A stretch of 58,411 nucleotides of DNA, taken from Ruditapes philippinarum (Eukaryota). The stretch is from NCBI RefSeq assembly GCF_026571515.1, contig NW_026864517.1, positions 434,001 through 492,411 on the forward strand. The letters run 5' to 3'. Under the pieces are notes generated by a model that was given only the letters and a program-made list of their open reading frames with translations, was not told the origin of the DNA and did no database searches. A program made the position numbers and the translations under genes. Below, one piece after another: positions 3,911 through 55,193 of the stretch; within the stretch, counting starts at the first letter, position 1, and each line of letters opens with the position of its first letter.

Positions 3911-5047
3911 CTATTTGTTAGGCTTCGACATGAACACCTGTGCGATAACACCGATCTTTCCGTTGAAAATGTAACCTTTGCCAACTTGCTCAATACTATG
4001 TGTTCCTAAAATTTCAAATAATGCATGTTGCAAAAATGAATTAAAACTTCCGCTTTGAACAACCACATTATTTTTTCCACGTGGTTGTCTATTTACTTGT
4101 ATGCAGAGCACATTTATATCACAGATGATTGTATTTTCACTGATGTTTTCAACTTTTATGTAAAGCCTACCGACGTTATTTTCTATACTTATCTTCAGAG
4201 GAACCTCCCAAATATTAGTATAAACTCCTTTACTTTCTTTCGTTCCTTCAGGAATAACATCAATAATAACTATGGTCTTGTCATCCCATTTCTGTGCAGG
4301 ATCTAACTTCAAATCCTTCTTTCCGTTACGTATTTCGGATGATATGTACTGCTTAAACAATGCATTTTCTTCGGCAACCTCTTCTAGCTCAACTAACTTT
4401 TTTCTTCATTTGATGTTATTAACATTTTTACAAAAAATCTCATTTAATGCACTTGCCGAAGGGAACGACTTACAGTAGTTTTCGTCCAATGCATCACATG
4501 GTCTAGATGATATAAGAAATATGCATCTAGCACGCAAAGCTTTAAGATCATACAAACATGCTTCTTTCAACAACTGTAACAAATCATTCGTCGATGTTTC
4601 TTCTGAGACAGTCTCAAGTATAACTACTTCACATCTTGGTTTTAGCTGTAGGACCTGGTACTCTTCTAACAAAGGAAGAATGACCCTAGCATTGTCGCGA
4701 TTAATTTGGGTGTATGTGTTTGGGTAAATACATCGAAGGAATTCTAAGACGTCCCTTAGTTTCTTCCCAGGCAATTCTAGCTCGTCACTTGACTTTTCCT
4801 TGAAGTCAGATTGGAACATTGCATCAAATACTGGTGACGCAAGTGAAAGAATATTTTTAGCGACGTAAAGCTTTGTTCCTTCAACAACAAGACACAGATC
4901 AGTTCTCCAAGATGGTTCAGTGAAACCGAAAGTAGGCGACTTATCTTCGCCCTGTGCCACTGTTTCACTATCTTCATCGGTAACGATATTTTCAACTACT
5001 GCACCGTCAGATTCGTTTACAATTCTGACGTTTTCACCTGCCTCCAT
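3911..5047 (-). CDS. BTB-MATH copy 2 (frameshifted near 4400-4440; possibly intact in vivo)
   Basis: ORFs 4406-5047 (BTB: TDLCLVVEGTKLYVAKNILSLASPVFDAMF...LEFLRCIYP) and 3911-4360 (MATH-like, ends GYIFNGKIGVIAQVFMSKPNK). The only disruptions are clustered single-base insertions in homopolymers. Confidence 0.8.
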
Positions 5048-5811
5048 ATTAATTGTAATTTAGTAAAAAAATTTGGAATATATCAAGTGCAGAGTATTTC
5101 AATCAGCTAACAGTGGCGTTTTAAATCAAAGGGAGAAAACCGGATAATAGATATAAAGTACTATCAGATGAAGTGGTGGTTAAACTAAATTCAAATTGAT
5201 AAATCAAATTCTTTGTTCTGTTATAAAGATTTTATTTTTGGATTTAAACACAGTTTTTATTATGATTATATCGGCGTTTTTTCCTCCTTATTACCACCAA
5301 TTTCTCCGCAAGTGATTATCTGCGAGGTAATTATGCAATACTGTTATGGTTATGATTTATTACAGAATACTTTAAATATTTCTCTTTGGACATTGAGTCT
5401 AACGTTCATTTAAATATATCTCTGACCACTGAAACAGAAGTCATGTGAGATTGGTAGTCGGCCATTTGCAGAGAAATTTCCGAGATATGTCCAATTTCGA
5501 CGTAAAAGCGAGACGAAAACAAAAACAGAAAAAATGGTGCTTTTCTTAGGTTGCTACCAAACTTTGAACGAATACACTGGATGAGTTTTGGTTTTATGCT
5601 GATGTGTAAGGTGGTCTGCAGATAAGTAAGGTCTGAGAATGAGTAATGGTTTTGTTCTTTTAAAAAAGTTTTAAAAGATAGCCGTCCTATCTCAGCCTGT
5701 GTCAATCTAGGCGAAGAACAAATACAATAAAAGAAGATCTTTTATTAATTTCTTTAGTTTTCATAAGATTTATTCAAATCTGATATTACAAATTCGTATC
5801 TCAAATTTCTA

Positions 5812-8800
5812 TTATTTCAAATCTAACAGTCTCCAGTTTTCCCAAATAATCTTCCTTGTCTACAAAATAAACCATGCTGGTGACGGCCTTGTGAATTTTC
5901 GTGTTCTTTGTTCTATAGTAAATCAGTCACATTTGAGGCTTAATTCTGGATTCCACTGTTCTTGATGAATTATTTACTGTCTTCAACTTTAAACATCAGC
6001 ACTATTTAAGTCAAATGAGGCCCAAAATATAATAGGTTAGCCATCTACTTTTTTTCAGAAATCTTCACTCTGTTGTAACACAGTTTAAATTCACCACTTT
6101 GAAAACTCCTGACTGCTGGTGGGTGGTACATCTTTAATCCTTCCGCCAACAAATGAGTTCCTGGAGAATACACAAAAAACAACTTTTAAACACATCATAT
6201 AACACACAAAAACTACACACATGCAATAAATACACTTTAATTATGACCAATCTAACTAGGGATGACTTAAATTGGGCCACTTCAAAATTTTAAAGAACTA
6301 CTTTCTAGACTACAACGGGTTCGGTCTAATTCCGTACCGGGTTGAGACCTAAATGAATCCAAAATTTAAGTTAAGCCAAAATTTATACTCATTTCCTAGT
6401 AATTTAGTGTTATACAAGTACATTCATATAGGTTTGACATGTCTCTAACAAATTACATTAATGCAGTACAATTTCTTAAATATAAAAATTCATGCGAAAA
6501 ATCAGCCTCGGCCAATAGAATTTTACACAAAAATTTATATCACAAATTCTGTCATATCTCTTGCCAATGGATTTTCTTCAAATAAAATTTGTTGTTACCG
6601 GCTAATGTCATTTAGTTATTTTTATGAAAGAATAAGTCCTTATTGCTTTAAAATTGTAATATTAACTCCATTTAATTTAATGAGAGCATGAAATGTTTGG
6701 TTAAAATACAAGTAATCACAATTAAATGTGCTTTTTCATAACTTTTTCCTTCAACATTACAATAAAACTTACTGATTATGATTTTTACCTATATACCATG
6801 GTAAATAAAGTACAGTACCAAGATATATACCCTATATTGTTTGCTTTAGATATTAGTAAAGACAAACAGAGGTAATCTTAAGTTTAGCAAAGAGGTTACT
6901 ATATCGCCATGGGCTATGTCTTCTGACAAAGTAAGATTAGCCAACTCTCACACAAATAAGGCTAAAAAATGATGGCACATACTGTCTCCCACTTTAAATC
7001 ATTGAGAAGTGTTAAAGTAGTCAAAATTAGAGAAATCTTTTCCTGATATACATCAAAATATCTACCAAATATTGCCCGAGCATTGGGAGTCGTTGCCGTC
7101 AATAGCCTGAAGTTTCAAACTAGACATAAGTTAATTACCTTCTCAACTTGTCCTGACAAATCTGTTGCCAAACTGAGCTGAAAGAGTTCTTCCATAGATC
7201 TTAACCAGTATAAGGTAAGGTCCTGTACTCAAAACCCGGCTTTGGTAACTGCATGGTCTGAAAAAATATGCAACACTAGTACATGTTGAAGGAAATTATA
7301 AGAGGCATTTATGCTGTTATTCTGATATCCAAAAAAAGAAAGAAAATAATTTCTTAATTAATCAATGGCTTGATTTGCAAATTCACACAGGAAGGCTTAA
7401 ATATTGTGTGCTTAAAAATGCATGCATGCATGGAAATAACAGTTTAGACATTATAAACCTAACCTAATTTAACTGCTGTAGCAGCTGCTACAACAACAAA
7501 CAACAAACAATCAACATCAACTGTGTTATTTCTAAATGAGCCAATTATCCATAAACTCACTGTTTTATGACTAGAAAATCTTTTGTGTGTATGTATTAGC
7601 AAATACATTCTGCAGCACAGCAAAACATCAAGTTTCACTACACTGAAAATGCCTATATTTCCAACATGTAAATCACATTTGTCCTAGCTGTTCAATTGTC
7701 AGTTCTGCTTTCATTGAAATACAAGACAATAGTGAATATTTACAAATCTGATTACTACAGCATCAATACTTTGCTGAAACATCAGTGCATATAATGCGTG
7801 GTCCATATGAGCAATAGGTTACTATGGTGCTTGTTCGAATACCATGGCCGGTGCTTCTTGGGCCCCTAAGACCTCTAAAATGAGCTTGCCAATCACTTTT
7901 TTTGCCAAACAGTAACCAGCCTGAAAACATGCACTCCCCAATTTCTTGCAATGCATGGTTTATCCATGATTTAAGATGCATTTCTCTAAAAATTATCATT
8001 TTCCATATGAATGTTATAAAAATAAGCAATAGATCTAGTAAACTGCTAAATACAGGGTGCAAAAATAAAATTTATCAATTTATTAACTGCTTTAAACAAA
8101 ATTTAAATTTCATTATTTTTATTTTAAATGTATTTTTACAGTTTTAATTCAATAAAATGTGGACAATCGTTCACGCAAAAGGTCTGTACCCTTCTTCTGC
8201 ACCTACTGACACAGTAGCAGACATCTACATTTAAAGGGGAGATAACAATAACAACATCTGTCCCAATTTAAAATGTCAAAATTAAAAATTTGAAATAAAA
8301 TTTAAAATTTTCAAACCTGTCAGTTTTCCTTTATTTTCCTGATTTCTATGCATAAACACAACACTGATGCAAAGTTTCATCCATATCCATTAACCAGTTC
8401 CCATTTTTCAAATTTCTCCTCTTGGTGACGGCCTGGTGAATTTTCGTGTTCTTTGTTCTATAGTAAATCAGTCACATTTGAGGCTTAATTCTGGATTCCA
8501 CTGTTCTTGATGAATTATATACTGTCTTCAACTTTAAACATCAGCACTATTTAAGTCAAATGATGCCCAAAATATAATAGGTTAGCCATCTACTTTTTTC
8601 AGAAAACTTCCACTCTGTTGTAACACAGTTTAAATTCACCACTTTGAAAACTCCTGACTGCTGGTGGGTGGGTACATCTTTAATCCTTCCGCCAACAAAT
8701 GAGTTCCTGGAGAATACACAAAAAACACATCATATAACACACAAAAACTACACACATGCAATAAATACACTTTAATTATGACCAATCTAACTAGGGATGA

Positions 8801-10795
8801 CTTAAATTTGGCCACTTCAAAATGTTAAAGAACTACTTTCTAGACTACAACGGGTTGGGTCTAATTCCGTACCGGGTTGAGACCTGCTGTGTATCTCGAG
8901 CTGAATATTTTTGAAATATTTCACCATTCCAGTTTCTAGTAGATTTTCTAGAACATCAAAGTCGCAGCCTTCACAGTCCATAGAAAGTAGATCTACACTG
9001 TATATATCCTACGCCAAGATTTTGGAAAAAAATTCTGTTTGAATTCAATGAACACTTACATTTATTTTCTTCTGACCAAAATCATTCGAATAAAATTTCC
9101 GAACCTTTCCCCTTTGAAAAATTCAATAGCAATAGTTTCCGTCTTCTGTCGAGTCCGAAATTTAAGAACGGACCTGGATATTAAAACTAAGAATTTTTAT
9201 GCAGAACATAAGAATTTTACTTTGCTTTTCTTAGTGTTTCCTCTTAAAATTGCATTGATGTATATTGGAAAAACAAATTTTAAGTTTAATTTTATCCATG
9301 AGTTTTAAATTAGATGCGTTGACATAAAAAAAACATATTTGATAATGAGATATTCTTAAAAACTAAAAAAGTTATGGATATTCGTAATTTTTACGTAAAT
9401 TTAGTATATAAATTATTGTCCGTAAAATCAGAAGAAAATTGTCTTGTTAATCACAAGTGCTTAATAAATAAAAGTAAAAAAAACGGAAAAAAATTTTACA
9501 AAATTTATTTCCCTTTTTTGTAAATTTTAAATAAGAAAGGGGAAGAACCCTTTTCAACAAAAAATGGAAATAAAGGGAAAGCGACATAATTTTAAAATAA
9601 ATATCAATTTCCCAAATAAAAAATAGAAGGGGCTTTTTAAAAAGATTGGTTTGAAAAGAAATTGGGATTTTATTTAAAAATTTACGTCTCGGCTAGGTCA
9701 CGTGATTCGGTTCTCTACCTACCGAGATATGGTGTAGAGTACCATACAGAAGCTCTCAATTAAATTTTAAGATAATTTATTGATTATCCCAAAGAGTTAT
9801 AGTTCACTTATCCTTAGTAGAAAAACTTATCATTAAAAATTAATAACAGTGCTTTACAATAAAATAAGTGTATTTCTCGTTCCCGGTCTGGAGGTAAAAG
9901 TTTAATGTCTAGTTCCGTAAGATTTTAATTTATTCATTCTATTTATGACAAAAAATAAATTTTTATCTTTCGTTTTGTTATTTAGTAATATTTTGATGTT
10001 GAATTTAATGCATCTTTAAATGCAGCCCTTGCACAATATATTTTAAACATTAAATCTTTATATTGCAATGTATACACTGTATTTTATATTACAAAATAAT
10101 ATATCTTACTAATGGGGATTTATATAGGGCATTTCAATATCATTCTATCTTAACGATTGTGGTAAAGGTAACGGAAAGTTAACATACCGCGTCTGCACAA
10201 TATAGGTGACGGAATATAGCATCGACATTTTTTAATTGAATATAAGTAACGGAAAGTGAACATACCGCTTTTTGATAAATAACTGTAATGGAACGTGGCG
10301 TTACCAAATTTTGACAAATATTGGTAACAGAAAGTAATTTTATTAATAAATGCAGGAAATGGCAAGTGATCGATAATTCAAAATTCAAGGGTATATGGCA
10401 TGATGGAGATGTTTACGTGTCAATCAACCGTATTGACTTATTCATTCGCAAAATTTCAAAAAAAAAATCTAAGGCTAAGAATTTCAATTTTTGAACCTCC
10501 CCTTGGAGAGTCACAGTACAAACGCATTCACCAAATTTTTAGTCGCTGGTAAGATATTGTTCATTTCCTACCAACAAACAGTAAACAATTACATTCACAT
10601 AGAAATCTGAAAAAGTATGTTTTATTTAAAACAAGTCAAAAAGTATGAATAAGACCTTGTCTGTAACTATTGCTTCTTTATCAATAAAATAATTGAAAGT
10701 TACTGCTTCTTGGTTAATACTGACACATGTTGCTGATTTTAGGCTGATTTAGCTTAAATATATAAACAAGGAAGCATCTGACCCAAAGTTTCCTG
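5812..10795 (-). pseudogene. FkbM-like methyltransferase copy E: exon 3 split by a 3-kb insertion and partly deleted, exon 2 mostly deleted, exon 1 absent
   Basis: Exon 3 remnants at 5812-5879 (..WENWRLLDLK*) and 8885-9175. Exon 2 remnant at ~10765-10795. Intron 2 is homologous to the other copies. Confidence 0.85.
5880..8884. mobile_element. 3.0-kb element bounded by ~465-bp direct repeats (LTR-like, non-canonical ends), apparently non-autonomous
   Basis: Repeats 5880-6349 and 8425-8884 are nearly identical. Flanked by TGCTG at 5875-5879 and 8885-8889; the paralogous empty site is CATGCTGTG. No long ORF inside. Confidence 0.85.
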
Positions 10796-13274: not shown

Positions 13275-14389
13275 CTATTTATTAGGTTTCGACATAAACA
13301 CCCGTGCAATAATACCAATCGTTTCGTTGAGAATGTAACCATTGCCAACTTGCCAAACACTATTTGTTCCTAAAATTTCAAATAATTTATATTGTGCATA
13401 TGACCGAAAACTTCCGTTTTTAACAATCACATGATTTTTTCCGTTTGGTTGTCTATTCACTAGTATACAGAGCACACTGAAATCACAGATTGTTGTTTTT
13501 TACTCATATTTCCGACTTTAAAGTAAAGATTACTACTCTTATTCATTATATTAATCTTCAGAGGTACCTCCCAAATATTAATATCAACTCCTTCACTTTC
13601 TTTCTTGTCACCAGGAATAACATCAATTATAACTCTTGTCATCCCATTTCTTTTCAGGATCTAACTTCAAATCATTCTTTCCGTTACGTATTTCGGATGA
13701 TATGTACTGCTAAAACAGTATATTTTCTTCAACGACATGTTCTAGCTCTGCTAACTTAGTCTTCATTGATGTATTAACATTTACAAATATCTCATTTAAT
13801 GCACTTGTCGAAGGGAACGATTTACAATAGCTTTAATCCAATGCATCACATGGTCTAGATGATATTAGAAATATACATCTAGCACGCAGAGCTTTAAGAT
13901 CATACAAAGATGCTTCCTTCAACAACTGTAACAAATCATCCGTCGGTGTTTCTTCTGTAACAGTCTCAAGTATTACTACTTCACATCTTGGTTTTAGCTG
14001 TAGGACCTTGTACTCTTCTAAAAAAGGAAGAATGACCCTAGCATAGTCGCGATTAATTTGGGTGTATGTGTTCGGGTAAATACATCGAAGGAATTCTAAG
14101 ACGTCCCTTAATTTCTTCCCAGGCAATTCTATCTCGTCACTTGACTTTTCTTTGAAGTCGGATTCGAACATCGTATCAAATACTGGTGATGCAAGTGAAA
14201 GAATATTTTTAGCGACGTGTTCCTTCAACAATAAGACACAGATCAGTTCTCCATGGGTTCAGTGAAACGGAAAGTACGCGACTTATCTTCGGTTTGCAAC
14301 ACTGTTTCACTATTTTCATCGGTAACGATATTTTCAAATTCTGAACCCTCAGATTCGTTTACAATTCTGACATTTTCATCTGCCGCCAT
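13275..14389 (-). pseudogene. BTB-MATH copy 3
   Basis: ATG at 14389 (MAADENVRIVNESEG..). Small deletions at ~14218 and ~14255, nonsense TAA at 13833-13835, further frameshifts. Ends VFMSKPNK at 13275. Confidence 0.9.
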
Positions 14390-15306: not shown

Positions 15307-15308
<2 letters not shown>

Positions 15309-15564: not shown

Positions 15565-18500
15565 TTATTTCAAATCTAACAGTCTCCAGTTTTCCCACAT
15601 ATGTTTGTATTGATACGTTAATCTATGTGTCCGCCGCATATGTTCCTGGAGTGTACAGTACCGTGTTAAATAATTTTCCTTGTCTATAAAATAAGCCATG
15701 CTGTGTATCTCGAGCTGAATATTTTTGAAATATTTCACCATTCCAGTTTCTAGTAGATTTTCTAAAACATCAAGTTCGCAGCCTTCACAGTCCATAGAAA
15801 GTAGATCTACACTGTATATTCCTACGCCAAGATTTTGGAAAAATTCTGTAGAATTAATGACACTTACATTTATTTTCTTCTGACCAAAATCATTCGAGTA
15901 AATGTTCGAACCTTCGCCTTTGAATTCAATAGCAATAGTTTCCGTCTTCTGGCCGAGTCCGAAATTTAGAACAGTGACCCTGCAGATATAAAATAAGAAT
16001 TTTTATGCATATATTTATGTGTTGACATAAGAAAAAAAAACATGTTTGAGGAAATGATATCCTTAAATGCTAGAAAGTTTGACATAATATGTAATCTTTT
16101 ACGTAAATATAATATAAAGTTATTGTCAGTAAAATCAGAAGAAAATTTTTCTTGTCAATCACAGTGCTTAATAAATAAAAGTAACGAAAAAACTCACTAG
16201 TGACTGCTTAATATAAGTAACGGAAAGTGAAGTTACCACTTTTCGACAAATATGAATAAGGTAAGGCGACATATTCACTTCCTCATAAATAAAGTAACAT
16301 TTCAACTTCTAAATAAATATAGAATGGGTCTTTTAAAAAGATTGGTCTAGAAACGGGATGTGTTCATGAAAAAGACGTCTCGGCTAGGTCACGTGATTCG
16401 GTTCTCTATCTACCGAGATATGGTGTAGAGTACCATACAGAATCTCTCAATCAAATTTTCTCGTTCCCGATCTGGAGATAAAAGTTTACTTCACACGTTT
16501 GTAAAAAGGTCGAGTTTCGTAAGCTTTTAATTTATTCATTGTTTTTATTTTTATGACAAAAAAATGAAATAAATGTCACATGTAAAGATTTTTATCTTTC
16601 GTTTTGTTATTTAAAATATTTGATGTTGAATTTAATGCATCTTAAAATGCAGTCCTTGCGCAATCGGCCGTTCTCAGTTAGAATTTACACCCTTAGTTTT
16701 TACTTGTCGCCACCGTCTATCCTCATTATTGCAGGTTATTTGCCTGTAAATCTATGCTGGTTTAAGAAGGTAAATGTTACCTTAAATAACACACAATAAC
16801 TCGCCATTTGATCATGAATAATTGTTTAATAATATTCACCTAAAGTTACGAAAATGACAGGTTCGTGATTGTCGCCGTCCAATTTATAAAAAGTGAACCT
16901 GTATTTAGATGCTTTAATTGTATTGTTTTAATTTTGTTTCATGCCGTATTATTTTGGAACACTTTACGACTATAAATTTGTAAATTAGATCTCAGTAACA
17001 ATAACTCATAAAAAATGGTAAGGGGTTAGTGTTTGTCGCCGGATAGTATGAAATGTTCGTTATCCTTTTAACCATATATTGCAAGTGAAGTGTTTTTATC
17101 ATTGAAACAACATTACATGTTCTTTTTTGTATTAATATCACAATATAATACTTTCATATTATCACCATGTTCATAGTGTGCACATTTTTTTTATTATAAT
17201 TTATGCAGAATTTAACGTTGTGATGTGGTTTTGGTTAAAATTGAAAGGTTCGTTATCTGATTTTAAGGGTTCATCACTGCAATATGTACTCCCAGCACAT
17301 GAAATGTTCTAAGTTGCGTAAAAATTAGTATATTATGCCAAAAATGAAACATTTTGTAGCTGTATAAACAATATTATTGAATCTGAAATATGCTGAGAAA
17401 AGGTTCGTGATGAAAGGTTCGTGCGGTTATATATTTTACTCGCTGCCGCATTCACTATGCTTGTTTGTAAACGGCTGCGGTTAACAAACATATGTACTAT
17501 GAAGTCATTTGGGTTGAAACCTTTCAATTCTTTATATTTTAAACATTAAATCTTCTAATTACAATGTATACACATATTACAAAATATATCTTAATAATGA
17601 GATTTATATAGAGCGTTTCAAGGTCATTCTATCTGAAAGATCGTGGTAAAGGTAACGGAAAGTTAACTTACCGCGTCTGCATAATATAAGTAACGGAAAA
17701 TAGCATCGACATTTCTTAATTGAAAAAAGTAACGGAAAGTGAATCTACCGCTTTTTTGATAGATATCTGATTTGGAACGTGGCATTGCCAATTTTTGACA
17801 AATACTGGTAACAGAAAGTGATTTTGTTAATAAATAAATGTAGATGACCGATCATTCAAAATTCATGGGTATATGGCATGATGGAGATGTTTACGTGTCA
17901 ATCAACCGTTTTGACTTTATCGCAAAATTTACAAAAAAAAATCTAAGGCTATGAATTTCAATTTTTGAACCACCTTTTGGAGAGTCACAGTACAAACGCA
18001 ATCACCCAAATTTTGTCGCTGGTAAGATATTGTTAGCTTCCTACCAACATACAGTAAACAATTACATTCACATAAAAAATCTGAAAAAGTCACAAAGGTG
18101 ACCTTATAAGACCTTGTCTATAGATGACTCTTTCTGCTTCTTTATCAATAAAGTAACGGAAAGTTACCTAACCGCTTCTTGGTAAATACTGACAAATGTT
18201 GCTGATTTTATGCTGGTTTAGCTTAGATATGTGACTTAACAGTTTACCTTGGATTGTCTTTGAATTTCTCTTGTAAAAGTGTAGCATAGTACGGTATCGG
18301 CTCCACTATCAGATGTCGTGGGTTGTAGACGGCGGTAAACAAGGAAGCATCTGCTCCAAAGTTTCCTGGTTTTATATAATGGTGAAGTGAATAATTGACA
18401 TATTATAACACCCATTAACAGTTCGTTAACTTTTCATCAGCTGATAACATGGTATTCAGTTTTATTACGATGCATATTATGATTTAGATTTTCTTTTGAA

Positions 18501-24152: not shown

Positions 24153-25268
24153 CTATTTGTTAGGCTTCGACATGAACACCTGTGCAATAATACCGATCTT
24201 TCCGTTGAGAATGTAACCATTTTCAACTTGCCCAATAGTATATGTTCCTAAAATTTCAAATGTTCGATATTGAAAAATTGACGATAAACTTCCGTTGTAA
24301 ACAGTCACATGATTTTGTCCACTTGGTTGTCTATTTACTAGTATGCACAGCACACTTAAACCGCATATAGCTGTATTTTTACTAATGTTTTCGACTTTTA
24401 AGTAAAGCTTACTACTCTCTCTCGTTATGCTGATCTTCAGAGGTACCTCCCAAATATTAATATCAACTCCTTCACTTTCTTTCTTGTCACCAGGAATAGC
24501 ATCAATTATAACTATGGTCTTGTCATCCCATCTCTTTTCAAGATCTAACTTCAAATCCTTCTTTCCGTTACGTATTTCTGATGATATGTACTGCTTAAAC
24601 AGTATATTTTCTTCAACGATCTGTTCTTGCTCTGCTAACTTATTCTTCATTGATGTATTAACATTTACAAAAATCTCATTTAACGCATTTGCCGATGGAA
24701 ACGACTTACAATAGCTTTCATCCAATGCATCACATGGTCTAGATGATATTAGAAATATACATCTAGCACGCAGAGCTTTAAGATCATATAAACATGCTTC
24801 CTTCAACAACTGAAACAATTCATCTGTCGATGTTTCTTCAGTGACAGTCTCTAACAGCACTAGTTCACATCTAGACTTATGTTGAAAAACCTGGTATTCT
24901 TCTAAAAGAGGAAGAATTGCCCTTGCGTTGTCGCGATTTATTTGGGCACATGTGTTCGGGTAAATACATCGAAGGAATTCCAAAACGTCCGTTAGTTTCT
25001 TTCAAGGCAATTCTAGCTCGTCACTTGACTTTTCTTTGAAGTCGGATTGGAACATTGCATCAAAAACTGGTGACGCAAGTGAAAGAATCACCTTTGCGAC
25101 GTACAGCTTTGTTCCTTCCACAACAAGACACAGATCAGTTCTCCAAGTTTTTTCAGTGAAACCGAAAGTAGGCGATTTAACCTCGGCTAAAGCTACGATC
25201 TTACTTTCTTCATCGGTAACAATATGTTCAGCTTCGTCTGCAATTCTGACGTTTTCAACTGCCTCCAT
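24153..25268 (-). pseudogene. BTB-MATH copy 4; full-length frame with one in-frame TGA
   Basis: The 1116-nt frame is continuous. TGA at 25002-25004 replaces the Gly of LELPGKK (GGG in paralogues). Confidence 0.8.
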
Positions 25269-28578: not shown

Positions 28579-29774
28579 TTAACGGTATATTAGAAAACAG
28601 AGTTTTGTTTTGCAATGGCTATCAGTCCATTTGTTTGGCTTCGACATGAACAACTTTATAATATAGCCGATCTTTCCGTTGAGAATGTAACCACTGTTAA
28701 TGCTGTTGATATACGTGTTGTCAAAAACTTCAAATGTTACAGATTTATTATGTTGATTCAAATCCGCCTTTGTGAACAATCGTGCCATTTTTTCCATTTG
28801 GATGTCTATTAACGATTACTGCAGAGTACATGTATATCACAGGCAGTCTTATATTCACCAATGCTTTTCTAACACCACAGTTAAAGCTTACTGTTTACTT
28901 TTTTGTGTAAATTGTAAGAGGGACCTCCCAAATCTCAATTTCAAACTCCTTCACTCTCGTTGTTGTCAGGACAAATTGCTTCAAAATAGAACTATGATCT
29001 TGTCGTCCCATTTCTTTTCAGGATCTAACTTCAATCTGTTGTTCCCCGTAATGTTTGACGATACATACTGCATTAACAACTCACATTTTTCTTCAACCTG
29101 TTCTAGCTCAGCTATTCTTATTTCTTCATTGATGTATTAACATGTAGAAATATCTCATTAATGCACTTGCCGAATCCGGGAACGACTTACAGTAGTTTTC
29201 GTCCAATACATCACATGGCCTAGATGATATCAGAAAATATGCATCTAGCACGCAAAGCTTTAAGATCATACAAACATGCTTCATTCAACAACTTGAAACA
29301 GATCATCCGTCGATGTTTCTTCTGTAACAGTCTCAAGTATAACTACTTCACATCTCGGTTTAAGCTGTAAGGACCTGGTACTCTTCTAACAAAGGAAGAA
29401 TGGACCCTAGCATTGTCGCAATTAATTTGGGTGTATGTGTTCGGGTAAATACATCGAAGGAATTCTAAAGACGTCCCTTTAGTTTCTTCCCAGGCAATTC
29501 TAACTCGTCATTTGACTTTTCATTAAAGTCAGATTGAAACATTGCATCAAATACTGGTGATGCAAGTTGACAGAATCACCTTTGCGACGTAAAGCTTTGT
29601 TCCTTCAACAACAAGACACAGATCAGTTCTCCAAAGAGGGGTTCAGTGAAACCGAAAGTAGGCGACTTATCTTCGGCCAGTGCCACTGTTTCACTATCTT
29701 CATCGGCAACGATATTTTTCAACTTCTGAACCCTCAGATTCGTTTACAATTCTGACGTTTTCACCTGCCTCCAT
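28579..29774 (-). pseudogene. BTB-MATH copy 5 (indel-riddled duplicate of copy 6)
   Basis: ATG at 29774. Sequence equals 35390-36570 apart from many single-base insertions. Confidence 0.8.
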
Positions 29775-35389: not shown

Positions 35390-36570
35390 TTAAATTAACG
35401 GTATATTAGAAAACAGAGGTTTTGTTTTGCAATGGCTATCAGTCCATTTGTTTGGCTTCGACATGAACAACTTTATAATATAGCCGATCTTTCCGTTGAG
35501 AATGTAACCACTGTTAATGCTGTTGATATACGTGTTGTCAAAAACTTCAAATGTTACAGATTTATTATGTTGATCAAATCCGCCTTTGTGAACAATCGTG
35601 CCATTTTTTCCATTTGGATGTCTATTAACGATTATGCAGAGTACATGTATATCACAGGCAGTCTTATATTCACCAATGCTTCTAACACCACAGTAAAGCT
35701 TACTGTTTACTTTTTTGTGTAAATTGTAAGAGGGACCTCCCAAATCTCAATTTCAACTCCTTCACTCTCGTTGTTGTCAGGACAAATTGCTTCAAATAGA
35801 ACTATGATCTTGTCGTCCCATTTCTTTTCAGGATCTAACTTCAAATCTGTTGTTCCCCGTAATGTTGACGATACATACTGCATTAACAACTCACATTTTT
35901 CTTCAACCTGTTCTAGCTCAGCTATCTTATTCTTCATTGATGTATTAACATGTAGAAATATCTCATTTAATGCACTTGCCGAAGGGAACGACTTACAGTA
36001 GTTTTCGTCCAATACATCACATGGCCTAGATGATATCAGAAATATGCATCTAGCACGCAAAGCTTTAAGATCATACAAACATGCTTCATTCAACAACTGA
36101 AACAGATCATCCGTCGATGTTTCTTCTGTAACAGTCTCAAGTATAACTACTTCACATCTCGGTTTAAGCTGTAGGACCTGGTACTCTTCTAACAAAGGAA
36201 GAATGACCCTAGCATTGTCGCAATTAATTTGGGTGTATGTGTTCGGGTAAATACATCGAAGGAATTCTAAGACGTCCCTTAGTTTCTTCCCAGGCAATTC
36301 TAACTCGTCATTTGACTTTTCCTTAAAGTCAGATTGAAACATTGCATCAAATACTGGTGATGCAAGTGACAGAATCACCTTTGCGACGTAAAGCTTTGTT
36401 CCTTCAACAACAAGACACAGATCAGTTCTCCAAGAGGGTTCAGTGAAACCGAAAGTAGGCGACTTATCTTCGGCCAGTGCCACTGTTTCACTATCTTCAT
36501 CGGCAACGATATTTTCAACTTCTGAACCCTCAGATTCGTTTACAATTCTGACGTTTTCACCTGCCTCCAT
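35390..36570 (-). CDS. BTB-MATH copy 6 (class II C-terminus), one frameshift at ~35711-35716
   Basis: 287-aa ORF ends ACA AAA AAG TAA. The -1 frame continues VNSKLYCGVRSIGEYK...GYILNGKIGYIIKLFMSKPNKW, colinear with copy 9. Confidence 0.8.
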
Positions 36571-37387
36571 ATTAAGTGTAGTTCAGTAAAAGTTCGGTAT
36601 GTGTAGTGCATATCAATCAGCTAACAATGGCGGTTATACATCAAAGGGAGGAAACCCGGATGTTTGATAGATGATATATAGCGGCAGGATACTATATAAA
36701 ACTAAGTTCACATTCAAATAATCTTATAAACGGTGACACCAATGTTTTGGTTATATTTACACCAATTTATTAGGGGTTTTATACCTCAACAATTATATTC
36801 TGTTATTATTATATTAGTTTTGTTTTTACTGGATTTTGAACAAAGTTTTTGGTTTTATCTCTACGGTTTTCCACCTTACCAACAACTTCTCCACAAGTGA
36901 TTCACTACGATATATGCACTACTGTTATGGTTAATAACATACTACTTTAAATTTCTATTTGGACATTGAGTCTAATGGTCATTTGTCTCTGACCACTGAA
37001 ACAGAAGTCATGTATTAGTCAGGCATTTGAGGAGAAATTTCCTGGTTGAATATTTAGGAAAAATACTCGGACCGTTCGCCGAGATATGACCAATTTCGGC
37101 ATAAAAGCCAAACAAACGATCAATAAAATAATGGTGCTTTTCTTTAGTTAAAACAAAGTTTGACTGTATTTGCAGGATGGTTTTCGGTTTTGTGCTGATA
37201 TGTTGGTGGTCTGCGGATGAGTTAGGCATGAGAAGGAGTCAAAGACAGCAGTTCAATCAGAGGCTGTACCAATCTAGGTGAAGAAAATAAGAAGAAATTC
37301 TTTTATCAATATGTATAAATATATTTTTAGTTTTTATTAGATTTATCCTAGTCTGATATTACAAATTCGTATTTCAAATTTCTATTT

Positions 37388-40300: not shown

Positions 40301-40628
40301 TGATGCAGACATATCTGTCCTTAGCAAGTTCTCGGCGCTTTTATCCAGTCGACATATTGCCGACAATGAGAAATCCTATTAATTGATCATAGCTTAAAGA
40401 ATGGTTGAACAAGGCTTTTCCTCCAACAACAGGAGATGGATGTCCGTCCAGGAAAAGTTGTAAATGTTTATTATAAACCACTTTCTTTTGTTCGCCATCT
40501 GTAAAGAATTGTCTAATATCCGACCTGTTTTCTTTTAAATTCTGATTTTGAGTACTGTTATACAAATAAATTATCAAAACAACTATCACACAAGCCGTCA
40601 GTATCCTTACGCCATTTAGCGTTTTCAT
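37388..40628 (-). CDS. FkbM-like methyltransferase copy B: join(40250-40628,39420-39537,37388-37805); three 1-nt losses in exon 1
   Basis: Exons 2 and 3 are open with conserved splice sites. Exon 1 differs from copy A by a 6-nt deletion and three homopolymer contractions at ~40322-40385, which may be sequencing errors. Confidence 0.78.
38707..39074. mobile_element. Kolobok-like TTAA MITE (duplicate of 31960-32314)
   Basis: Same termini and TTAA flanks. Confidence 0.8.
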
Positions 40629-44620: not shown

Positions 44621-45751
44621 CTATTTGTTAGGCTTCGACATGTACACCTGTGCAATAATACCGATCTTTCCGTTGAGAATGTAACCATTGCCAACTTGCT
44701 CAATACTTTCTGTTCCTAAAATTTCAAATGACCGATTTTGTGCATATAACGGAAAACTTCCGTTGTAAACAATCATATGATTTTTTCCACTTGGTTGTCT
44801 GTTTACTAATATGCACAGCACACTTAAACCACAGATGGCTCTATTTTTACTAATGTTTTCGACTTTTAAGTAAAGACTACTATTCTTATTCATAATATTA
44901 ATCTTCAGAGGTACCTCCCAAATATTAATATCAACTCCTTCACTTTCTTCCCTGTCACCAGGAATAACATCAATTATAACTATGGTTTTGTCATCCCATC
45001 TCTTTTCAGGATCTAACTTCAAATCCTTCTTTCTGTTACGTATTTCTGATGATATGTACTGCTTGAATAAAACATTTTCTTCCGCAACCTGTTCTAGCTC
45101 AGCTAACCTTTTCTTCATTGATGTATTAACATTTACAAAAATCTCATTTAACGCATTTGCCGAAGGGAACGACTTACAGTAATTTTCATCCAATGCATCA
45201 CATGGTTTAGATGATATAAGAACTATGCATCTAGCACGCAGAGCTTTAAGATCATACAAACATGCTTCCTTCAATAACTGTAACAATTCATTCGTCGTCG
45301 TTTGTTCAGTGACTGTCTCTAACAGCACTAGTTCACACCTTGGTTTTAGCTGTAGGACCTGGTACTCTTCTAACAAAGGAAGAATGATCCTAGCATTGTC
45401 GCGATTAATTTGGGTGTATGTGTTCGGGTAAATACATCGAAGGAATTCTAAGACGTCCCTTAGTTTCTTCCCAGGCAATTCTAGCTCGTCACTTGACTTT
45501 TCTTTGAAGTCGGATTGGAACATCGTATCAAATACTGGCGAGGCAAGTGAAAGAATCAACTTTGCAACGTAAAGCTTTGTTCCTTCAACAAGAAGACACA
45601 TATCAGTTTTCGAAGATTTTTCAGTGAAACCGAAAGTAAGCAAATTAACTTCGGCTAATGCCATTGTTTCACTTTCTTTGTCGGCAACAATATTTTCAAC
45701 CTCTGCAGCTTCTGATTCGTCTTCAATTCTGACGTTTTCACCTGCCTCCAT
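44621..45751 (-). CDS. BTB/POZ + helical/coiled-coil + MATH(TRAF)-like protein, copy 7, intact 376 aa; putative Cullin-3 substrate adaptor (BATH-like)
   Basis: Uninterrupted ORF. BTB signature DMCLLVEGTKLYVAKLILSLASPVFDTMFQSDFKEK..LPGKK..LEFLRCIYP. MATH-like ending LVNRQ...GNGYILNGKIGIIAQVY. The MATH call is by pattern only. Confidence 0.92.
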   Translation of the reverse strand: MEAGENVRIEDESEAAEVENIVADKESETMALAEVNLLTFGFTEKSSKTDMCLLVEGTKLYVAKLILSLASPVFDTMFQSDFKEKSSDELELPGKKLRDVLEFLRCIYPNTYTQINRDNARIILPLLEEYQVLQLKPRCELVLLETVTEQTTTNELLQLLKEACLYDLKALRARCIVLISSKPCDALDENYCKSFPSANALNEIFVNVNTSMKKRLAELEQVAEENVLFKQYISSEIRNRKKDLKLDPEKRWDDKTIVIIDVIPGDREESEGVDINIWEVPLKINIMNKNSSLYLKVENISKNRAICGLSVLCILVNRQPSGKNHMIVYNGSFPLYAQNRSFEILGTESIEQVGNGYILNGKIGIIAQVYMSKPNK

Positions 45752-47413: not shown

Positions 47414-50340
47414 ATTTCATACATCTCACCATTATATATAAATATTTATTTCAGAATAATATATATTGTTTATATAGATCTTAGGTAAATCTCAGTTTGA
47501 GAAGGTAAGAGATTATAAATGAGATAAAATTGACAAAATTTAGGCCAATTATAAACATATCAATCCTTTAAATTAAATGTATTAAAGGCTATTAAAGCTT
47601 AAGATCATTACCTTTAACTAAAACAACCATAAGTTAAGATAAAAAATAACGAATTGGTATAATTCCCCCCCCCCCCCTCCTCCCAAAAAATAAAAATAAA
47701 ACTGACTGAATTTTGTTTAATTAGCATTTCAATGTTTCATAGTTCATTACCAGATTATAATAAAATAGAATCATATTAAATATCAATTAATTTTGTTTAT
47801 TTATGCAAGTTATAATTTTTTATATTTACTTATTCTAACAATTAAGTTTTAAAGTACAAAATCAGTAAAATTAATGACTTTGAAAAATTTGAATGTTGTT
47901 TGAAACCTATTTGAAATGTATCAGGAGCAGAACGAGCTAATTCATTAATTCTAACCCTATTTCCGAGGTGTCACGATGTAATAAACAAATAAAGCTAGGC
48001 CTTTTGTAGATATATTCCGAGAAAACTGGCTTGAGTAAATAAACTGATAGAAATGTTATCAAAATAAATGAAACAACTTGGCTTCTAAGTAATTACTCCG
48101 TGTATTTTCCGTAACACTGGAATTTGAAAAAAAAAACAGGAATAGTACAATAAAAACTCCGAATATGTGCGACGTATGACCATTAAATGTAAACAAACCA
48201 AATAAGTATTATATCAAATTGCGCCGCATATAGCTCTCAACAAATATTTCATCATTATCATTGCACTATTCATCGACATCTTACTAAAATTGCAACGATT
48301 AAAGCTCCAAACAAAAGGGAACTGAATATCCCAAGATGCTCCATTTTGATGAATAAAGCTCCCAAAGTATACGCATGCAATTAATATTTTTGCCATTATT
48401 TTCGTTTCTGTTTTTTCAAATACAAAGGCTTTGTTTTTTTAACATAGCGCAAAGTCTTTTTTGTAACATTTATTCATTATCATCATCATCAAAATGAGCA
48501 GAACATCGTCAATGTCAACATCATAATCATCATTATCAGTGCGTTATAATTATCCGTACATCAACATCATCATCTATACATCACTATCAACAACCAAAAT
48601 CATCATCATCAACAACATCACCATCATCATTATTTTTTTTATCTGGTTGGGTTTTACGTCGCACCAACACAGTTCCTATAGCGACTTTCCAGCTTTATTG
48701 AGGGAGGAAGATTTCAGGTGCCCTTCCATGCTTTATTTCATGCGGACACCCGAGTAGAGCCACCAACGTTCCGTAAGCTAGCTGGGAAGCTCCCTCATAA
48801 TAACATTGTCATCATCAAAATCATCATAATAAGCAGTATTCTTCGTCATTACATCGTCCTGTTCAGCTTCATCAACATCAGTGCATCTACATTATTAATC
48901 ATCACCAGTACATGGTAACCATTATAATCATTATCATCATCATTATCACCACCACCAGAAACATAATTAACATCATCATTATCAACAGTAAAAAATTCTG
49001 GAAACAAAGTGATCCCTCGGAAGCATTAATCACAACAAAATAACATAAGAATTGCAGACTCGGTTTGATTGAGTCTGTACATGAAGAATAATGTATAAGC
49101 GCAACATCCCTCACGCCCCCTAGCACCGGCCTGAGCGGTACTCAATTCTCAACACTTTATAGTAAAACATCCATATCATCATCATCAGATCATCATCGCA
49201 ATTATCACATCATTATTATCGGTACCATCATTGTTGTTATGATAATTAAATCATCATCATCAACTACAACATTTCATCATCACCATAATCAATTCGAAAT
49301 ATTCACAATAAAGGGGTTATACATGTATATGAGCAAGTCAAGTTAATCACTTTTTAAATGATATTTTTCGATGTTAAAGCTCAAAAATATATTAATTGAA
49401 ATAAATGAACATGTATACAAACATGTATGTCTCATTTAAAACAACAACAACAACAACAACAACAACTTAAAACAACAGTATGACGAGTATCGGACTTCGT
49501 GTAATAAAGCAATAACAATTATTTTTTATGGAAGTGACAATTTTTAAATGTATATTACTTTATTCTTGTAAGATTATTTGGCTGACATACTTTTCCTGAA
49601 AAAAAACCTTCATTTACTTTTTTGAGGCCCCATATTGGGTAACCTTATTTATTTGCTCCGTCACATAACCACGTTGGGTCAAAGCACATAAAACGGTGGT
49701 TTTACAGACAGTTCGTTAGACGATATTTATAAATGCAAAGAAAAGGTATACCCAAATGAAAGGCACATACATAGAGAAAAGGGAAAAAAACAAAGAAAAG
49801 ATGCAAAACCACCCACATGTACACAAGCATGCACACACACAAGCACACACACACACATACTCGTACATGTTTATATTTAACATTAAAATTGTATAATTTT
49901 CAGATTTTCAGATACAATTTTGCTTAAATTTGACAGGTATTTTATTCCATACATAGTATTGATACATTGCAATACAGCAAACGACTTCAATATTTCCATC
50001 ATCTTTGCTTGACGAACGTGTCAATCAAGAAAAATCAGAAAGTTGCATATAAATTGATAGTACCGTTGTTCTTTGTAAACAATATTCAAAACAAACAAAT
50101 ATTATAATGATAATGATATATAAATAAGGTAACAGTGTTTATGTAATTGTAAATGATTACCAAAATGTTTATTCAGTATTTTACATTACACAACAACACT
50201 TGATTGATTCTTGATCAAAACATCACTCTAATTTAACAATATTTACATGTAGTGTATTTACATTTCTTACAGTCATTATAGACACATTTCTTTATTATTC
50301 CTGATATATAATTCTCACCAATTTTCAAAGGCTACCTCTA

Positions 50341-51467
50341 CTATTTGTTAGGCTTCGACATGAACACCTGTGCAATAATACCGATCTTTCCGTTGAAAAT
50401 GTAACCATTGCCAACTTGCTGAATAGTATATGTTCCTAAAATTTCAAATGTTTTATATTGTGAATATGACCTAAAACTTTTTTTAACAATCACATGATTT
50501 TGTCCATTTGGTTGTCTATTTACTAGTATGCAGATCACAATTATATCACTCTCGGTCATATTTTTACTAATGTTTTCTACTTTAAAGAAAAGCTTATTTC
50601 CTTCTATCATTATGCTTGTCTTCAGAGGAACCTCCCACATATTAATATCAACTCCTTCACTTTCTTTGTTGTCTTTAGGAATAACATCAATAATAACTAT
50701 GGTCTTGTCATCCCATTTCTTTTCAGGACTTTACTCCAAATCCTTCTATCCGTTACGTATTTCGGATGATATGTACTGCTTAAACAATAGATGTTCTTCA
50801 GCAACATGTTCAAACTCTGCTAACTTTTTCTTCATTGATGTATTAACATGTACAAATATCTCATTTAATGCACTTGCCGAAGGGAAAGACTTACAGTAGC
50901 TTTCGTCTAATGCATCACATGGTCTAGATGATATAAGAAATATGCATCTTTCACGTAAAGCTTTAAGATCATACAAACATGCTTCCTTCAACAACTGTAA
51001 CACCTCATCCGTCGACGTTTCTTCTGTGACAGTCTCAAGTATAACTTCTTCACATCTTGGTTTTAGCTGTAGGACCTGGTACCCTTCTAACAAAGGAAGA
51101 ATGACCCTAGCGTTGTCGCGATCAATTTGGGTGTATGTGTTCGGGTAAATACATCGAAGGAATTCTAAGACGTCCCTTAGTTTCTTCCCTGGCAATTCTA
51201 GCTCGTCACTTGACTTTTCCTTGAAGTCGGATTGGAACATTGCATCAAATACTGGCGAGCCAGTGAAAGAATCACCTTTGCGACGTACAGCTTTGTTCCT
51301 TCCACAACAAGACAAAGATCAGTTCTCCAGGTTTTTTCAGTGAAACCGAAAGTAGGCGAATTAACCTCGGCTAAAGCCACACTTACACTATCTTCATCGG
51401 TAACGATATTTTCATCTTGTGCATCTTCTGATTTGTCTGCAATTCTGACGTTTTCAACTGCCTCCAT
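50341..51467 (-). pseudogene. BTB-MATH copy 8
   Basis: 1-nt deletion at ~51260. In-frame TAG at 50746-50748 and TAA at 50731-50733. Confidence 0.9.
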
Positions 51468-54166
51468 ATTAAGTGTAGTTTACTTAAAGTTAATATAACT
51501 TATAAACCCGCTACAGTGAACTTCTATCTATCAGCTAACAATGGCGGTTTCAAATCAAAGGGAGAAAAACCGGATATCTAATAACCAATTCTATAAATAT
51601 GACTAGCAGGCGTTTGTATATTTGAATGATAGTTACGCACGTGGACAGTGTAAACGGTGAAAATATATATACCCACACGTTATCTATTCACGGAAAATAG
51701 AATTATGTTGTTGAATAAAAATTTTCAGTTTTATGTGTTTACGCTAGGTATGCAAAAGTAAGATTTCAAAAATCATTATTGTTTTCTCTATTGTAAACTA
51801 TTATAATAACTTGGATGCCTAAAATATTATCTAACACATCTTTCCTTTATGTTAAAATGTCTTGACATTCAGAAAAGAAGTGATATCACACCCTGCTTTG
51901 TGACAACTAGTCCCCATTCGGTCTTCATATGGAATTTTATTTGGGTGGTCTCACGAATATGCTATCATGATTATGTTACTCTGATTTTTATATGTTTTCA
52001 AAGATCCTGTATGTTGTGATCAAAGTGGTAAACCACACTAAGTGAAATTATATATACATGCATGTACATGATTTTGCAAATAAAACAATTTTCAAACATT
52101 GAAGAAAATGTAAAATATGTGCTGCAAATATGTGTGCCTATTATATGTTATCTGTATATTTAAATTTGTTGCAATATAGTCTGTTCATATATATTCTTTT
52201 AATTCCTCCAATAGATGAAGAACATAACACATAAACATCCAAAATACAAATATTTACATGAAATGATAAAGAACAAAACATATTATAATAACAAAACATT
52301 AATAAAAAATGAAGAGAAGTAATTTCCTTAAGACTGAACTTGTTGAAAAAGAAGTACAAGATCAAAATTAATAAAACTTAAAACACAATTTCTTTTGTAA
52401 TAAAATAGTTTGCTGTCATAATTTCTATTATATCAAATAAACATGTTTCTTATTTATAATTTATTATTATTTATTTTATTACAAGTCATTTCAATCTTTT
52501 AAAACGTCAACATTTGAGAAGAATATACATGTATATTTCTATTTATGTTACCAGCTTTAGTAATTATGTTACAAAGATGCAAAATCAAACATTCGTCAGA
52601 AAAAATACTGAGATATATTGCATATGTTTGATGTGATACATACTTAAAAAAACATTTTTTGCAGCGACAAGAAACAGTTGTAATCACAAAATAAGAACAT
52701 TTATTTTTGGCAGTTAATCGTCCGTATCTGGAATAAACATATAAAATATGTTGTTCTTTGTGGTTAACAGTTTGTTACAAAGCTGATTCATGTACAAAAC
52801 AACAAACAATTTTTGTCAAATAAGAAATTCCGTGACAATTTACAAATTATCCAATTTTGCTGCCCTTGTAAATTAACAGTTATATCTTTATTGCGAATGT
52901 ACATGACACGTATTCCTGAAGGAATATTCCAGAGAAAATAAATACAGCGTATCATTATTATTAGTTTAAATACACTGTTCAACATGTTCAATAATATACA
53001 AATGTAATATATTCGTATATATGCATACCCCTGGTATTATACATATCCACCAGTTTATATTTATTTCTTTACTATACTTCTGGTAATAATATAAAGAATA
53101 TGCATATAGTATAACATTATATTTTGAATGCAGTATTATGAGACCATCAGACTAAACGTTTTCAGGTATTTCTTTTTAATAATTTGACCTGTATCTTTTT
53201 TAACATTCATACAATGGAATGCAAAAAACACCTCCAATATTTCAATCTGGTCTACGTGACAAACTTGTCACTCTAAAAAAGAAACAAGAAAAAACAACAG
53301 AAAGTTGCACAAAACGGATAGTTCTCCCTTTCTTTGAAAGAAATCGACCAATGAAGACCAAGGAAGTATTTCCGTCTAAATAAATCAACTTTTGTTTTCC
53401 TTTTATGTCATCAATTACAAAGTTGTTACGAAACATTTTCTGCACTCCAGTTTATGCGTGATTTGTAATAGTTTGTTATTTGTAAAAGACCTTTCACGAG
53501 TTAACTTTGACAACATTGAACATAGGGAATAACTTTAAAGGCAGGTTTTTAAAATTTAAAGGATTTTTTTTTATATATACTTAGTATATATATGTATTTT
53601 TAACAAGAACAATCTGTTATAAGTGACGGAGTTCACTAATTTATGTTTGTATTTATTTTTAATGTGATTTTAAATTCTGCACATATTTAAATTTGCATGC
53701 GAGTTATCACTTTCTAGAGGGGAATTAAATTACACACATAAACAAATGTATTGATACACTTAAACATAATTGATAAAGTCTTCCTTAATAATAAGTTTGT
53801 TATAAATGAAGCGTATTGTCGCCCATTTGGTTCATTCCGGTGACAAAGGTAAAGAAAGTAAATAAACAACACTGTTTTTCTGCACTCCCTGGGACTGGAA
53901 TACAACAAACAGGAATATGACCCATAGATGTTAAGATAAACAATTTACAAAACATACAAAAAAACTTAAATGTTATATAGATAAGATAACAGACTTTTTG
54001 TTTTGCAACTGGAATCAATAACAAATGTTAATTCATTTTTTATAGTTCAAAACAACACTTAATTCTGGATCTAGGAATCAATATTATTCAACAATTTACA
54101 TAGTGTATTTTCATGCCTTAGGTTACTATTGACAAATTGTCAGTAATATTTTTTTCTATTCAATGA

Positions 54167-55193
54167 CTATCTGTACCATTTGTTAGGCTTCGACATGGAA
54201 AACTGTGCAATAATGCCAACCTTTCTGTTGAGAATGTAACCACTGCTAACGTTATCAATATTAGAATTGAAAAAAATATCAAATGTTGCAGTTTGACTAT
54301 TTTCAGTTAATCTGACTTCGTGGAAAGTCGTGCGATTTTGTCCATTTGGTTGCCTATTGACGAGTATGCAGAGAACCCGTATATCACAAACAGTTTTATA
54401 TTCACCAATGTTTGTAACATCACAGTATAGCATACTGCTTGTTTTCATTGTGCTTATTTTAAGAGGGACTCCCCACAACCCATTTTCAACTCCTTCACTT
54501 TCTTTCTTGTCGGTACCAATTACATCAATTAGAACAATGATCTTTTCATCCCATTTCTTCTCTGGATCTAACTTCAATTTTTTTCCCAACCGTAATTCTG
54601 ACAATACGTACTGCTTAAATACTACATTTTCTTCTGAAACCTGATCTAGCTCTGCTAACTTTCTTTTCCTTGATGTATTTATATTTACATCTAGCACGCA
54701 GAGCTTTAAGATCATACAAACATGCTTCCTTAAACAACTGTAAAAAATCATCCGTCGATGTTTCTTCTGTGACAGTCTCAATTATAACTACTTCACATCT
54801 TGGTTTTAGCTGTAGGACCTTGTACTCTTCTAAAAAAGGAAGAATTGCCCTAGCGTTGACGCGATCAATTTGGGTGTATTTGTTCGGGTAAATGCATCGA
54901 AGGAATTCTAAGACGTCCTTTAGTTTCTTCCCTGGCAATTCTAGCTCGTCACTTGACTTTTCCTTAAAGTCAGATTGGAACATTGCATCAAATACTGGTG
55001 ACGCAAGTGAAAGAATATTTTTAGCGACATACAGCTTTGTTCCAAAGATCAGTTCTCCAAGATGGTTCAGTGAAACCGAAAGTAGGCGACTTATCTTCGG
55101 CCAGTGCCATTGTGCAACTATATTCATTGGTAACGATAATTTCAACTACTGTATCCTCATATTCGCAATTGTGACGTTTTCATCTGCCTCCAT
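54167..55193 (-). pseudogene. BTB-MATH copy 9 (class II C-terminus)
   Basis: ATG at 55193. Short deletion at ~55045 in the first BTB strand. A ~90-bp deletion at ~54685 removes FLISSRPC...NEIF. Ends MSKPNKWYR. Confidence 0.88.

Follow-up and report, generated by a model that had tools for sequence, protein, structure and literature searches.

An array of clam BTB genes with a predicted, hypervariable C-terminal MATH domain

The array of BTB genes described here lies in a 58,411-nucleotide stretch of the genome of the clam Ruditapes philippinarum (NCBI RefSeq assembly GCF_026571515.1, contig NW_026864517.1, positions 434,001 to 492,411, forward strand; hereafter the window, with positions counted from its first letter), and its closest described counterparts are the MATH-BTB families of nematodes and plants. 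In the bath and BPM proteins of these groups the MATH domain lies N-terminal to the BTB domain, and Thomas in 2006 reportedly found positive selection in MATH and none in BTB. The rodent Tdpoz and Rtdpoz genes derive from SPOP, place TRAF before POZ and are expressed in the germline or embryo, and in TRAF proteins a coiled coil precedes a C-terminal MATH domain (TRAF-C). In the relevant passages of published accounts, the instability of the nematode and plant families is coupled with a hypothesis of pathogen defence that rests on indirect evidence, citing Thomas 2006 (PMC1866355); the MATH-BTB genes of C. nigoni are described as clustered and lineage-expanded (PMC12951971); an expansion of BTB genes is described for rice (PMC13075204); and the rodent genes appear as clustered TRAF and POZ retrogenes with intronless coding regions and with expression in the testis and embryo of the rat (PMC2724483).

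The clam array resembles the Caenorhabditis bath and plant MATH-BTB adaptors in being a birth-and-death cluster of BTB and MATH genes, with signs of positive selection in the putative substrate domain and constraint in the putative cullin-binding domain (p=0.010 in the weakest test). It differs from bath and BPM in that the predicted MATH domain is C-terminal, stands behind a coiled coil and is too diverged for Pfam, and in that the host is a bivalve; unlike in the nematode and plant families, gene conversion has evened out the BTB half among copies of separate MATH clades. With SPOP, roadkill and plant BPM the clam proteins share a BTB-3box-BACK half, for which SPOP is the best PDB sequence match, a retained phi-x-E motif and the predicted MATH fold, whereas the domain order is the reverse of that in SPOP (BTB 43-143, MATH 252-376), the DWGF motif is missing and MATH identity is about 10%. 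Since a separate, highly conserved SPOP-like gene is present on contig C4512, the clam family is not the SPOP orthologue, and because of its reversed order and missing DWGF it is not a member of SPOP, BPM or bath as these are defined. The C-terminal domain finds its best structural match in the N-terminal MATH domain of USP7, at 14% identity; unlike USP7 and TRAF proteins, the clam genes lack protease, RING and zinc-finger domains and show no profile match to the clam's TRAF-type MATH sequences. Like the Tdpoz and Rtdpoz clusters, they are clustered, join a TRAF fold to POZ/BTB and have a single-exon coding part. We found no account of this bivalve family by title or abstract in the literature searched, a scope that excludes subscription journals and supplements. 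As far as these searches reach, the architecture, the Pfam-hidden MATH domain and the bivalve host are new; the evolutionary pattern is known in other kingdoms.

Architecture and predicted fold

The window, which is the end of contig C13004 in a 1.4-Gb genome, contains on its minus strand eight copies (W1 to W8) of a gene with one exon and about 376 codons, together with the decayed 5' remnant of another copy (878..1013), as recovered by BLAST with W6. Two more copies (U1, U2) lie just upstream and six on three other contigs (H1 and H2 on C15762, K1 and K2 on C407, and a distant pair, O1 and O2, on C15132); many are broken, and the arrangement is that of a tandem birth-and-death family. W6 (44621..45751, minus strand; 376 residues) is the only window copy that is intact as assembled, and H1, K1, U1, O1 and O2 are intact elsewhere. 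From N to C terminus, W6 encodes a BTB domain (residues 49-146; 45314..45607), 3-box/BACK helices (147-197; 45161..45313), a long helix predicted to form a coiled coil (198-245; 45017..45160) and a C-terminal domain of predicted MATH/TRAF fold (246-376; 44624..45016), within which a hypervariable patch (323-354; 44690..44785) spans strand 6, a loop, strand 7 and a short helix.

The N-terminal half matches the SPOP BTB domain best among PDB sequences (E 4e-9), and both Foldseek and VIA match it to SPOP BTB-3box-BACK, with model residues 40-218 on SPOP 195-365. Residues F82-K83-E84 align with M-E-E at the SPOP phi-x-E position and are identical in 13/13 copies shown. The relevant part of one study gives phi-x-E as a CUL3-binding motif (PMC3616122), and by its pattern F82-K83-E84 would be such a motif. 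By analogy with SPOP, proteins of this BTB-3box/BACK-coil-MATH order probably act as CUL3 adaptors.

Profile searches did not recover the C-terminal domain. Pfam returned only BTB in W6, with no RING or zinc finger; its MATH models matched neither W6 nor any of the C-terminal domains (0 of 17), and none of the genome's 12 matches to PF22486 belongs to the array. A PDB profile search with the domain gave one chance match only (E 0.68), and HHalign to eight clam TRAF-type MATH sequences gave no profile match (0.2%). The fold was modelled with AlphaFold2 from a 14-row alignment, single-sequence folding of the domain having been set aside at a predicted local distance difference test (pLDDT) score of 34. 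In the model, helical hairpins and a 36-residue helix link BTB to an eight-stranded domain with strands at 252-372, and pLDDT per 10-residue block is 77-93 across the C-terminal domain. In VIA this domain superposes on the MATH domain of USP7 with Z 14.1 (root-mean-square deviation 2.4, 124 residues aligned) and on that of SPOP with Z 12.6 (2.8, 123 aligned); Foldseek matches it to SPOP MATH at E 5e-6, and the ESM Atlas's own model resembles MATH clusters at a template modelling score of about 0.7. The domain is thus predicted to be an eight-stranded antiparallel beta sandwich of the MATH/TRAF fold, and the MATH-like character proposed for it in a first-pass annotation of this DNA is borne out in two predicted models, including by the superposition that the annotation had suggested as a check.

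Among database matches, named relatives carrying the C-terminal domain come from Ruditapes and Mercenaria only, and one from Mercenaria has been automatically named 'BTB and MATH domain-containing protein 38-like'. A protein tree of 26 rows unites the array copies (82/79) and places P0017 and P0018 as their sister group (100/100); six Mercenaria paralogues, all on one 46.5-Mb contig, branch apart from them. In the relatives outside the array (L019 at C15132:128844-132540 and the Mercenaria proteins) the coil is about 22-30 residues longer, and the stalk of the expanded clade is thus shortened.

Selection on the MATH head and constancy of the BTB half

The first-pass annotation had quoted seven peptides from a hypervariable patch and attributed their differences to diversifying selection. 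We located all seven on the minus strand within 3911-54500; an eighth copy, W4, was absent from its list. The sequence LVNRQP, given there as the anchor before the patch, reads QVNRQP in W1 and IVNRHP in W5, but the variability that follows is real: mean pairwise amino acid identity among the seven window copies without W4 is 42% in the patch and 66% in MATH residues 246-322. A second variable stretch, at 285-305, had been missed (46% identity; ratio of nonsynonymous to synonymous divergence, dN/dS, 0.62). By counting in seven window copies, patch dN/dS is 2.16 (1.41-3.47), the proportions of nonsynonymous and synonymous differences being 0.36 (pN) and 0.20 (pS).

Selection was further examined with codon site models that were written in-house, not taken from PAML, and applied to ten non-redundant loci of the 14 aligned. 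W4 was dropped as a duplicate and H1, H2 and U2 as alleles, O1 and O2 were too distant, and codons that contain or adjoin an indel or a stop were masked. Because the patch had been picked by eye, the models were fitted to the whole MATH domain. Twice the log-likelihood difference (2ΔlnL) was 40.2 for M1a/M2a, 50.8 for M7/M8 and 36.7 for M8a/M8, with dN/dS (ω) of about 4 on 12-15% of MATH codons. The signal persists with F61 and F1x4 codon frequencies, in the seven window copies, in a close clade of six, on another tree and with free branch lengths (44.1), and it is significant in the four wholly intact genes alone (13.4, p=0.0013). Residues 317-376 on their own tree gave 58.9, compared with 3.3 for residues 246-316, and MATH without the patch gave 6.5. 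No signal of positive selection was seen by site models in BTB (0.7), the coil (0.0) or the N-terminus (1.9). None of 54 simulations under a null without positive selection exceeded 8.4, their highest value, as against the observed 40. In a two-part model, patch ω is 1.92 with a synonymous rate of 0.8 of that in the rest of MATH, or 1.58 with a shared rate (p about 0.002). Positive selection on the MATH domain is therefore very likely, and the diversifying selection proposed for the patch agrees with a dN/dS above 1 by counting and, at 1.6-1.9, by likelihood.

Seven of the ten sites with posterior >0.9 fall within the 32 patch codons, out of 131 in MATH (Fisher p=0.002). The selected patch sites in W6 are Y329, P334, L335, A337, R340, E348, E351 and G354, each of them tentative because the posteriors are naive empirical Bayes values on ten sequences; P334 and A337 hold up under each of the models that were fitted to the full set of ten loci. 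Codon 334 encodes nine different residues in ten loci, and nearby codons lack even silent change, for example TTT at 342. A mutation hot spot was rejected as the source of the patch on its synonymous rate (0.8 of that in the remaining MATH), and so were assembly errors, since the patch differences are substitutions. Candidate selected sites also lie outside the patch, at G265, N290 and I306 (W6 residues 262-272 and 285-306, the latter at about 44834-44899). Even between distant MATH clades, silent differences are scarce at codons 329-368, in the patch and tail (9-13 per 100 same-residue codons, compared with about 30 in other MATH), which might be explained by codon composition or by conversion over short tracts.

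The patch can be placed on the MATH fold by comparison with SPOP. Seven of the ten cavity residues listed for SPOP in the pertinent part of one study (PMC8213225), namely M117, Y123, K129, D130, W131, G132 and F133, fall within about 115-146. SPOP 147-161 aligns clearly at offset 208, which matches the VIA end points, and SPOP 98-110 aligns best at 209; because it is bracketed by these anchors, patch 323-354 corresponds to SPOP about 115-146. SPOP numbering was taken from the genome's own SPOP-like exons (L039 and L040, C4512:134077-134226 and 144605-144724) and agrees with that study at 14/14 residue numbers. Within the patch the register carries an uncertainty of about ±2 residues, offsets 206-211 being all poor by sequence, and we claim no single-residue contacts. 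The patch is thus predicted to lie on the groove side of the MATH head, in keeping with the earlier suggestion that it maps near the peptide-binding strands. The D-W-G-F groove motif is not kept; the equivalent stretch is variable (QNRSF, QHALF, KSVTF, QTATF), without W or G.

The first-pass annotation had also described the BTB domain as near-invariant, which is an overstatement. At the protein level identity is indeed high, with a pairwise mean of 90% in BTB and 88% in 3-box/BACK (seven window copies without W4), whereas silent differences number 23 per 100 synonymous sites, compared with 20 in the patch. By counting in seven window copies, BTB has pN 0.055, pS 0.23 and dN/dS 0.21. Over all pairs of 14 copies, DNA identity is 85-100% in BTB plus 3-box and 58-100% in MATH. 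The BTB half and the MATH half each reject the other's tree (approximately unbiased test, 5000 replicates, fewer than advised), and the pairwise homoplasy index test gave p=0.0005 for the whole gene, 0.997 within MATH and 0.17 within BTB. Between MATH clades, silent differences are fewer in the BTB half: among eight pairs that we chose, W1 and U2 differ silently at 8/149 same-residue codons in the BTB half vs 18/64 in the MATH half, W2 and W8 at 9/101 vs 24/82, and W3 and W6 show the reverse pattern (27/142 vs 12/129). Other close pairs repeat the contrast, P0017 and P0018 being identical at 147/149 BTB positions vs 23/32 in the patch. The switch from BTB-like to MATH-like ancestry lies near codon 210, within the coil. 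With halves of different ancestry, the copies are mosaic in structure, and constraint and exchange both keep BTB constant. Judged from these alignments, gene conversion homogenises BTB between copies with very different MATH heads. Conversion alone was rejected as the source of BTB identity, given a silent divergence of 0.27 and a dN/dS of 0.21; contrary to what would have undermined the first-pass interpretation, BTB dN/dS is about 0.2, with conversion, which that annotation had missed, still contributing. The constancy of BTB is the product of purifying selection and gene conversion together.

A proposed mechanism and its rivals

We lean towards reading the locus as a tandem birth-and-death array of likely CUL3 adaptors, in which selection rewrites the predicted MATH groove and BTB is both constrained and converted. 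By extension from SPOP and KLHL3, a BTB dimer would dock on CUL3 through phi-x-E and the 3-box, the coil would present two MATH heads, and the groove would capture a short linear motif in a target, which would then be ubiquitylated. Selection on the groove would in turn imply changing targets. Judged from the pattern alone, these targets may change quickly and would most likely be proteins of intracellular pathogens or parasites; that they are foreign at all has, in our estimate, slightly less than an even chance. An arms race over substrate specificity, as put forward in the first-pass annotation, we infer from the same pattern. A bolder extension, which we regard as unlikely, is a module-shuffled repertoire for intracellular recognition in a bivalve. 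Gene conversion would maintain a single interchangeable BTB dimer and CUL3 dock in every copy, selection would diversify the MATH heads, and heterodimers of paralogues would form ligases with two heads, whose specificity for peptides of pathogens is combinatorial. If true, the repertoire would be a counterpart of the MATH-BTB defence families of nematodes and plants, put together independently and in reversed order, and hidden from domain databases.

Several observations weigh against the adaptor-and-selection reading. Seven of the eight window copies are broken as assembled, and the five broken copies alone also yield a signal (2ΔlnL 18.9). The statistic falls to 24.1 with multi-base hits and to 13.4 with site-wide rate variation; with both terms it is 9.2 (p=0.010), and only P334 and A337 keep a posterior >0.9. 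The patch was chosen after being seen, and its region-wide ω of 1.92 exceeds 1 at p about 0.02 only. Patch pS is low among close copies (0.14 vs 0.25-0.27 elsewhere), and this low synonymous divergence lifts the counting ratio. The independent pair O1/O2 shows no excess (patch pN/pS 0.44), this being one pair with an indel there. Within MATH, sharing of short tracts is possible (W2/W3/W6, codons 243-285), and site tests can be inflated by recombination. Between the likely alleles W1 and H1 the patch differs at 0 sites, and between W5 and H2 at 1, which in so tiny a sample gives no sign of balanced polymorphism. With DWGF absent, peptide binding by the clam MATH domain is assumed. RNA depth is low and BTB reads are not assignable to a single copy.

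Some of these points would fit an account without adaptation, in which a tolerant surface drifts in decaying duplicates, multi-base mutations mimic selection and BTB stays constant through conversion and constraint. The broken window copies, the 40-45% of MATH codons that fit ω=1, the fall of the statistic from 40 to 9 once multi-hit and rate terms are allowed and the lack of excess in O1/O2 are all as it would have them. Decay, however, predicts ω rising up to 1 throughout the gene, yet BTB is near 0.2 in the same copies; the four intact genes are significant alone, the null simulations stay at or below 8.4, the patch synonymous rate is 0.8 of that in other MATH, and codon 334 varies beside silent-invariant codons, which together leave this account quite improbable. 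The same adaptor and the same selection could also be directed at the clam's own proteins, those of transposons or selfish elements, of the germline or of the early embryo, as has been proposed for the Tdpoz clusters of rodents. The clam genes are single-exon, as are the clustered intronless TRAF-POZ retrogenes whose expression in the testis and embryo of the rat is described in the part of the source relied on here (PMC2724483); low RNA depth in two raw-read runs is what a restricted tissue would give, and positive selection does not identify the opponent. Against own targets stands the nematode and plant precedent, which is read, indirectly, as pathogen defence in the pertinent passage of PMC1866355, and we consider this main rival unlikely on balance. 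Finally, the long helix directly before a C-terminal MATH domain, an order shared with the clam's own TRAF-like protein L031, would suit a scaffold independent of CUL3, whose coil and MATH oligomerise to read receptor tails or foreign polymers and whose BTB merely dimerises. The strong constraint on phi-x-E and 3-box/BACK, the lack of RING or zinc finger and the absence of a profile match to the genome's eight TRAF-type MATH sequences make this very unlikely.

Copies, neighbouring genes and significance

The remaining window copies, all on the minus strand, vary in their state of preservation. W1 (3911..5047; patch 3980-4075) has one frameshift near codons 205-214 as assembled, and H1 on contig C15762 is an intact version of it at 98% identity. 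W2 (13275..14389; patch 13344-13439) has several frameshifts and two stops and is likely a pseudogene, W3 (24153..25268; patch 24222-24317) has one stop at codon 94, W5 (35444..36570; patch 35513-35608) has a single frameshift within a run of A at codon ~288, and W7 (50341..51467; patch 50410-50502) has a frameshift near codon 69 and two stops. W8 (54167..55193; patch 54245-54340), likely a pseudogene, has deletions, among them the loss of the greater part of the second half of its BACK helices. W4 (about 28627..29774) carries many indels of 1-2 bases, is otherwise nearly identical to W5 and is likely an unpolished assembly duplicate. H1, H2 and K2 are 96-99% identical to W1, W5 and U2 across BTB and MATH and are probably their alleles. 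In U2 (L012, C13004 about 423235) the 5' end is swapped for unrelated sequence, and K2 (L017, C407 about 8570-8840) has a short-repeat insertion within BTB; these are likely mobile-element insertions at different places in probably allelic copies.

W4 and W5 lie in a 6.8-kb tandem duplicate (26098-32915 vs 32916-39669) that is 97.8% identical with 106 gap openings. Across W4, DNA contigs of two runs show 1 and 8 mismatches, yet 22 and 24 gaps, and since DNA contigs lack the small indels of the first duplicate copy, that copy is probably an artefact of assembly. For W8 MATH, a contig of DNA run X1 shows 0 differences from 54000-54715, which also speaks against assembly errors as the source of the patch, although X1 may not be independent of the assembly. 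At the W7 frameshift site an extra base is present in 3/3 RNA reads of run X24, which may be paralogous, and not in X1 contigs. In two raw RNA runs, sampled at 4-5% of each, depth over W6 and W7 coding bins reaches about 2 per direction vs 0-0.3 in unique flanks. Coding parts that resemble W3 and W4/W5 are also covered by contigs of two runs presumed to be RNA; at 25244-26437 these contigs are missing from six bins in which a DNA run does have cover. These observations suggest that the BTB-MATH family is transcribed at a low level.

An FkbM-family methyltransferase gene (PF05050) has been co-duplicated between the BTB-MATH copies on the minus strand, with last exons at 15568-15957, 37391-37783 and 55764-56153, decayed ones at about 8880-9113 and 30613-31026, and possible first exons at 19107-19493 and 40251-40628. 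Four clean copies of the last exon show differences at only 3-7 of 130 residues. The relevant section of one study describes an FkbM-domain gene as Vibrio-responsive in this clam (PMC9125321), which may or may not be the gene of the array. A short repeat at about 48990-49165 has a depth of about 1800 per direction in RNA and DNA runs, vs under 2 in genes, and is probably a short interspersed element (SINE) or a miniature inverted-repeat transposable element (MITE).

The array offers a compact test system, with a near-constant docking half, about ten named groove positions and several intact variants, and it shows purifying selection and gene conversion acting jointly on the constant half. Its reversed domain order and Pfam-invisible MATH domain point to convergent assembly. 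The idea of fast-evolving cullin adaptors in defence rests on nematodes, plants and indirect evidence, and the same signature is now seen in a farmed clam.

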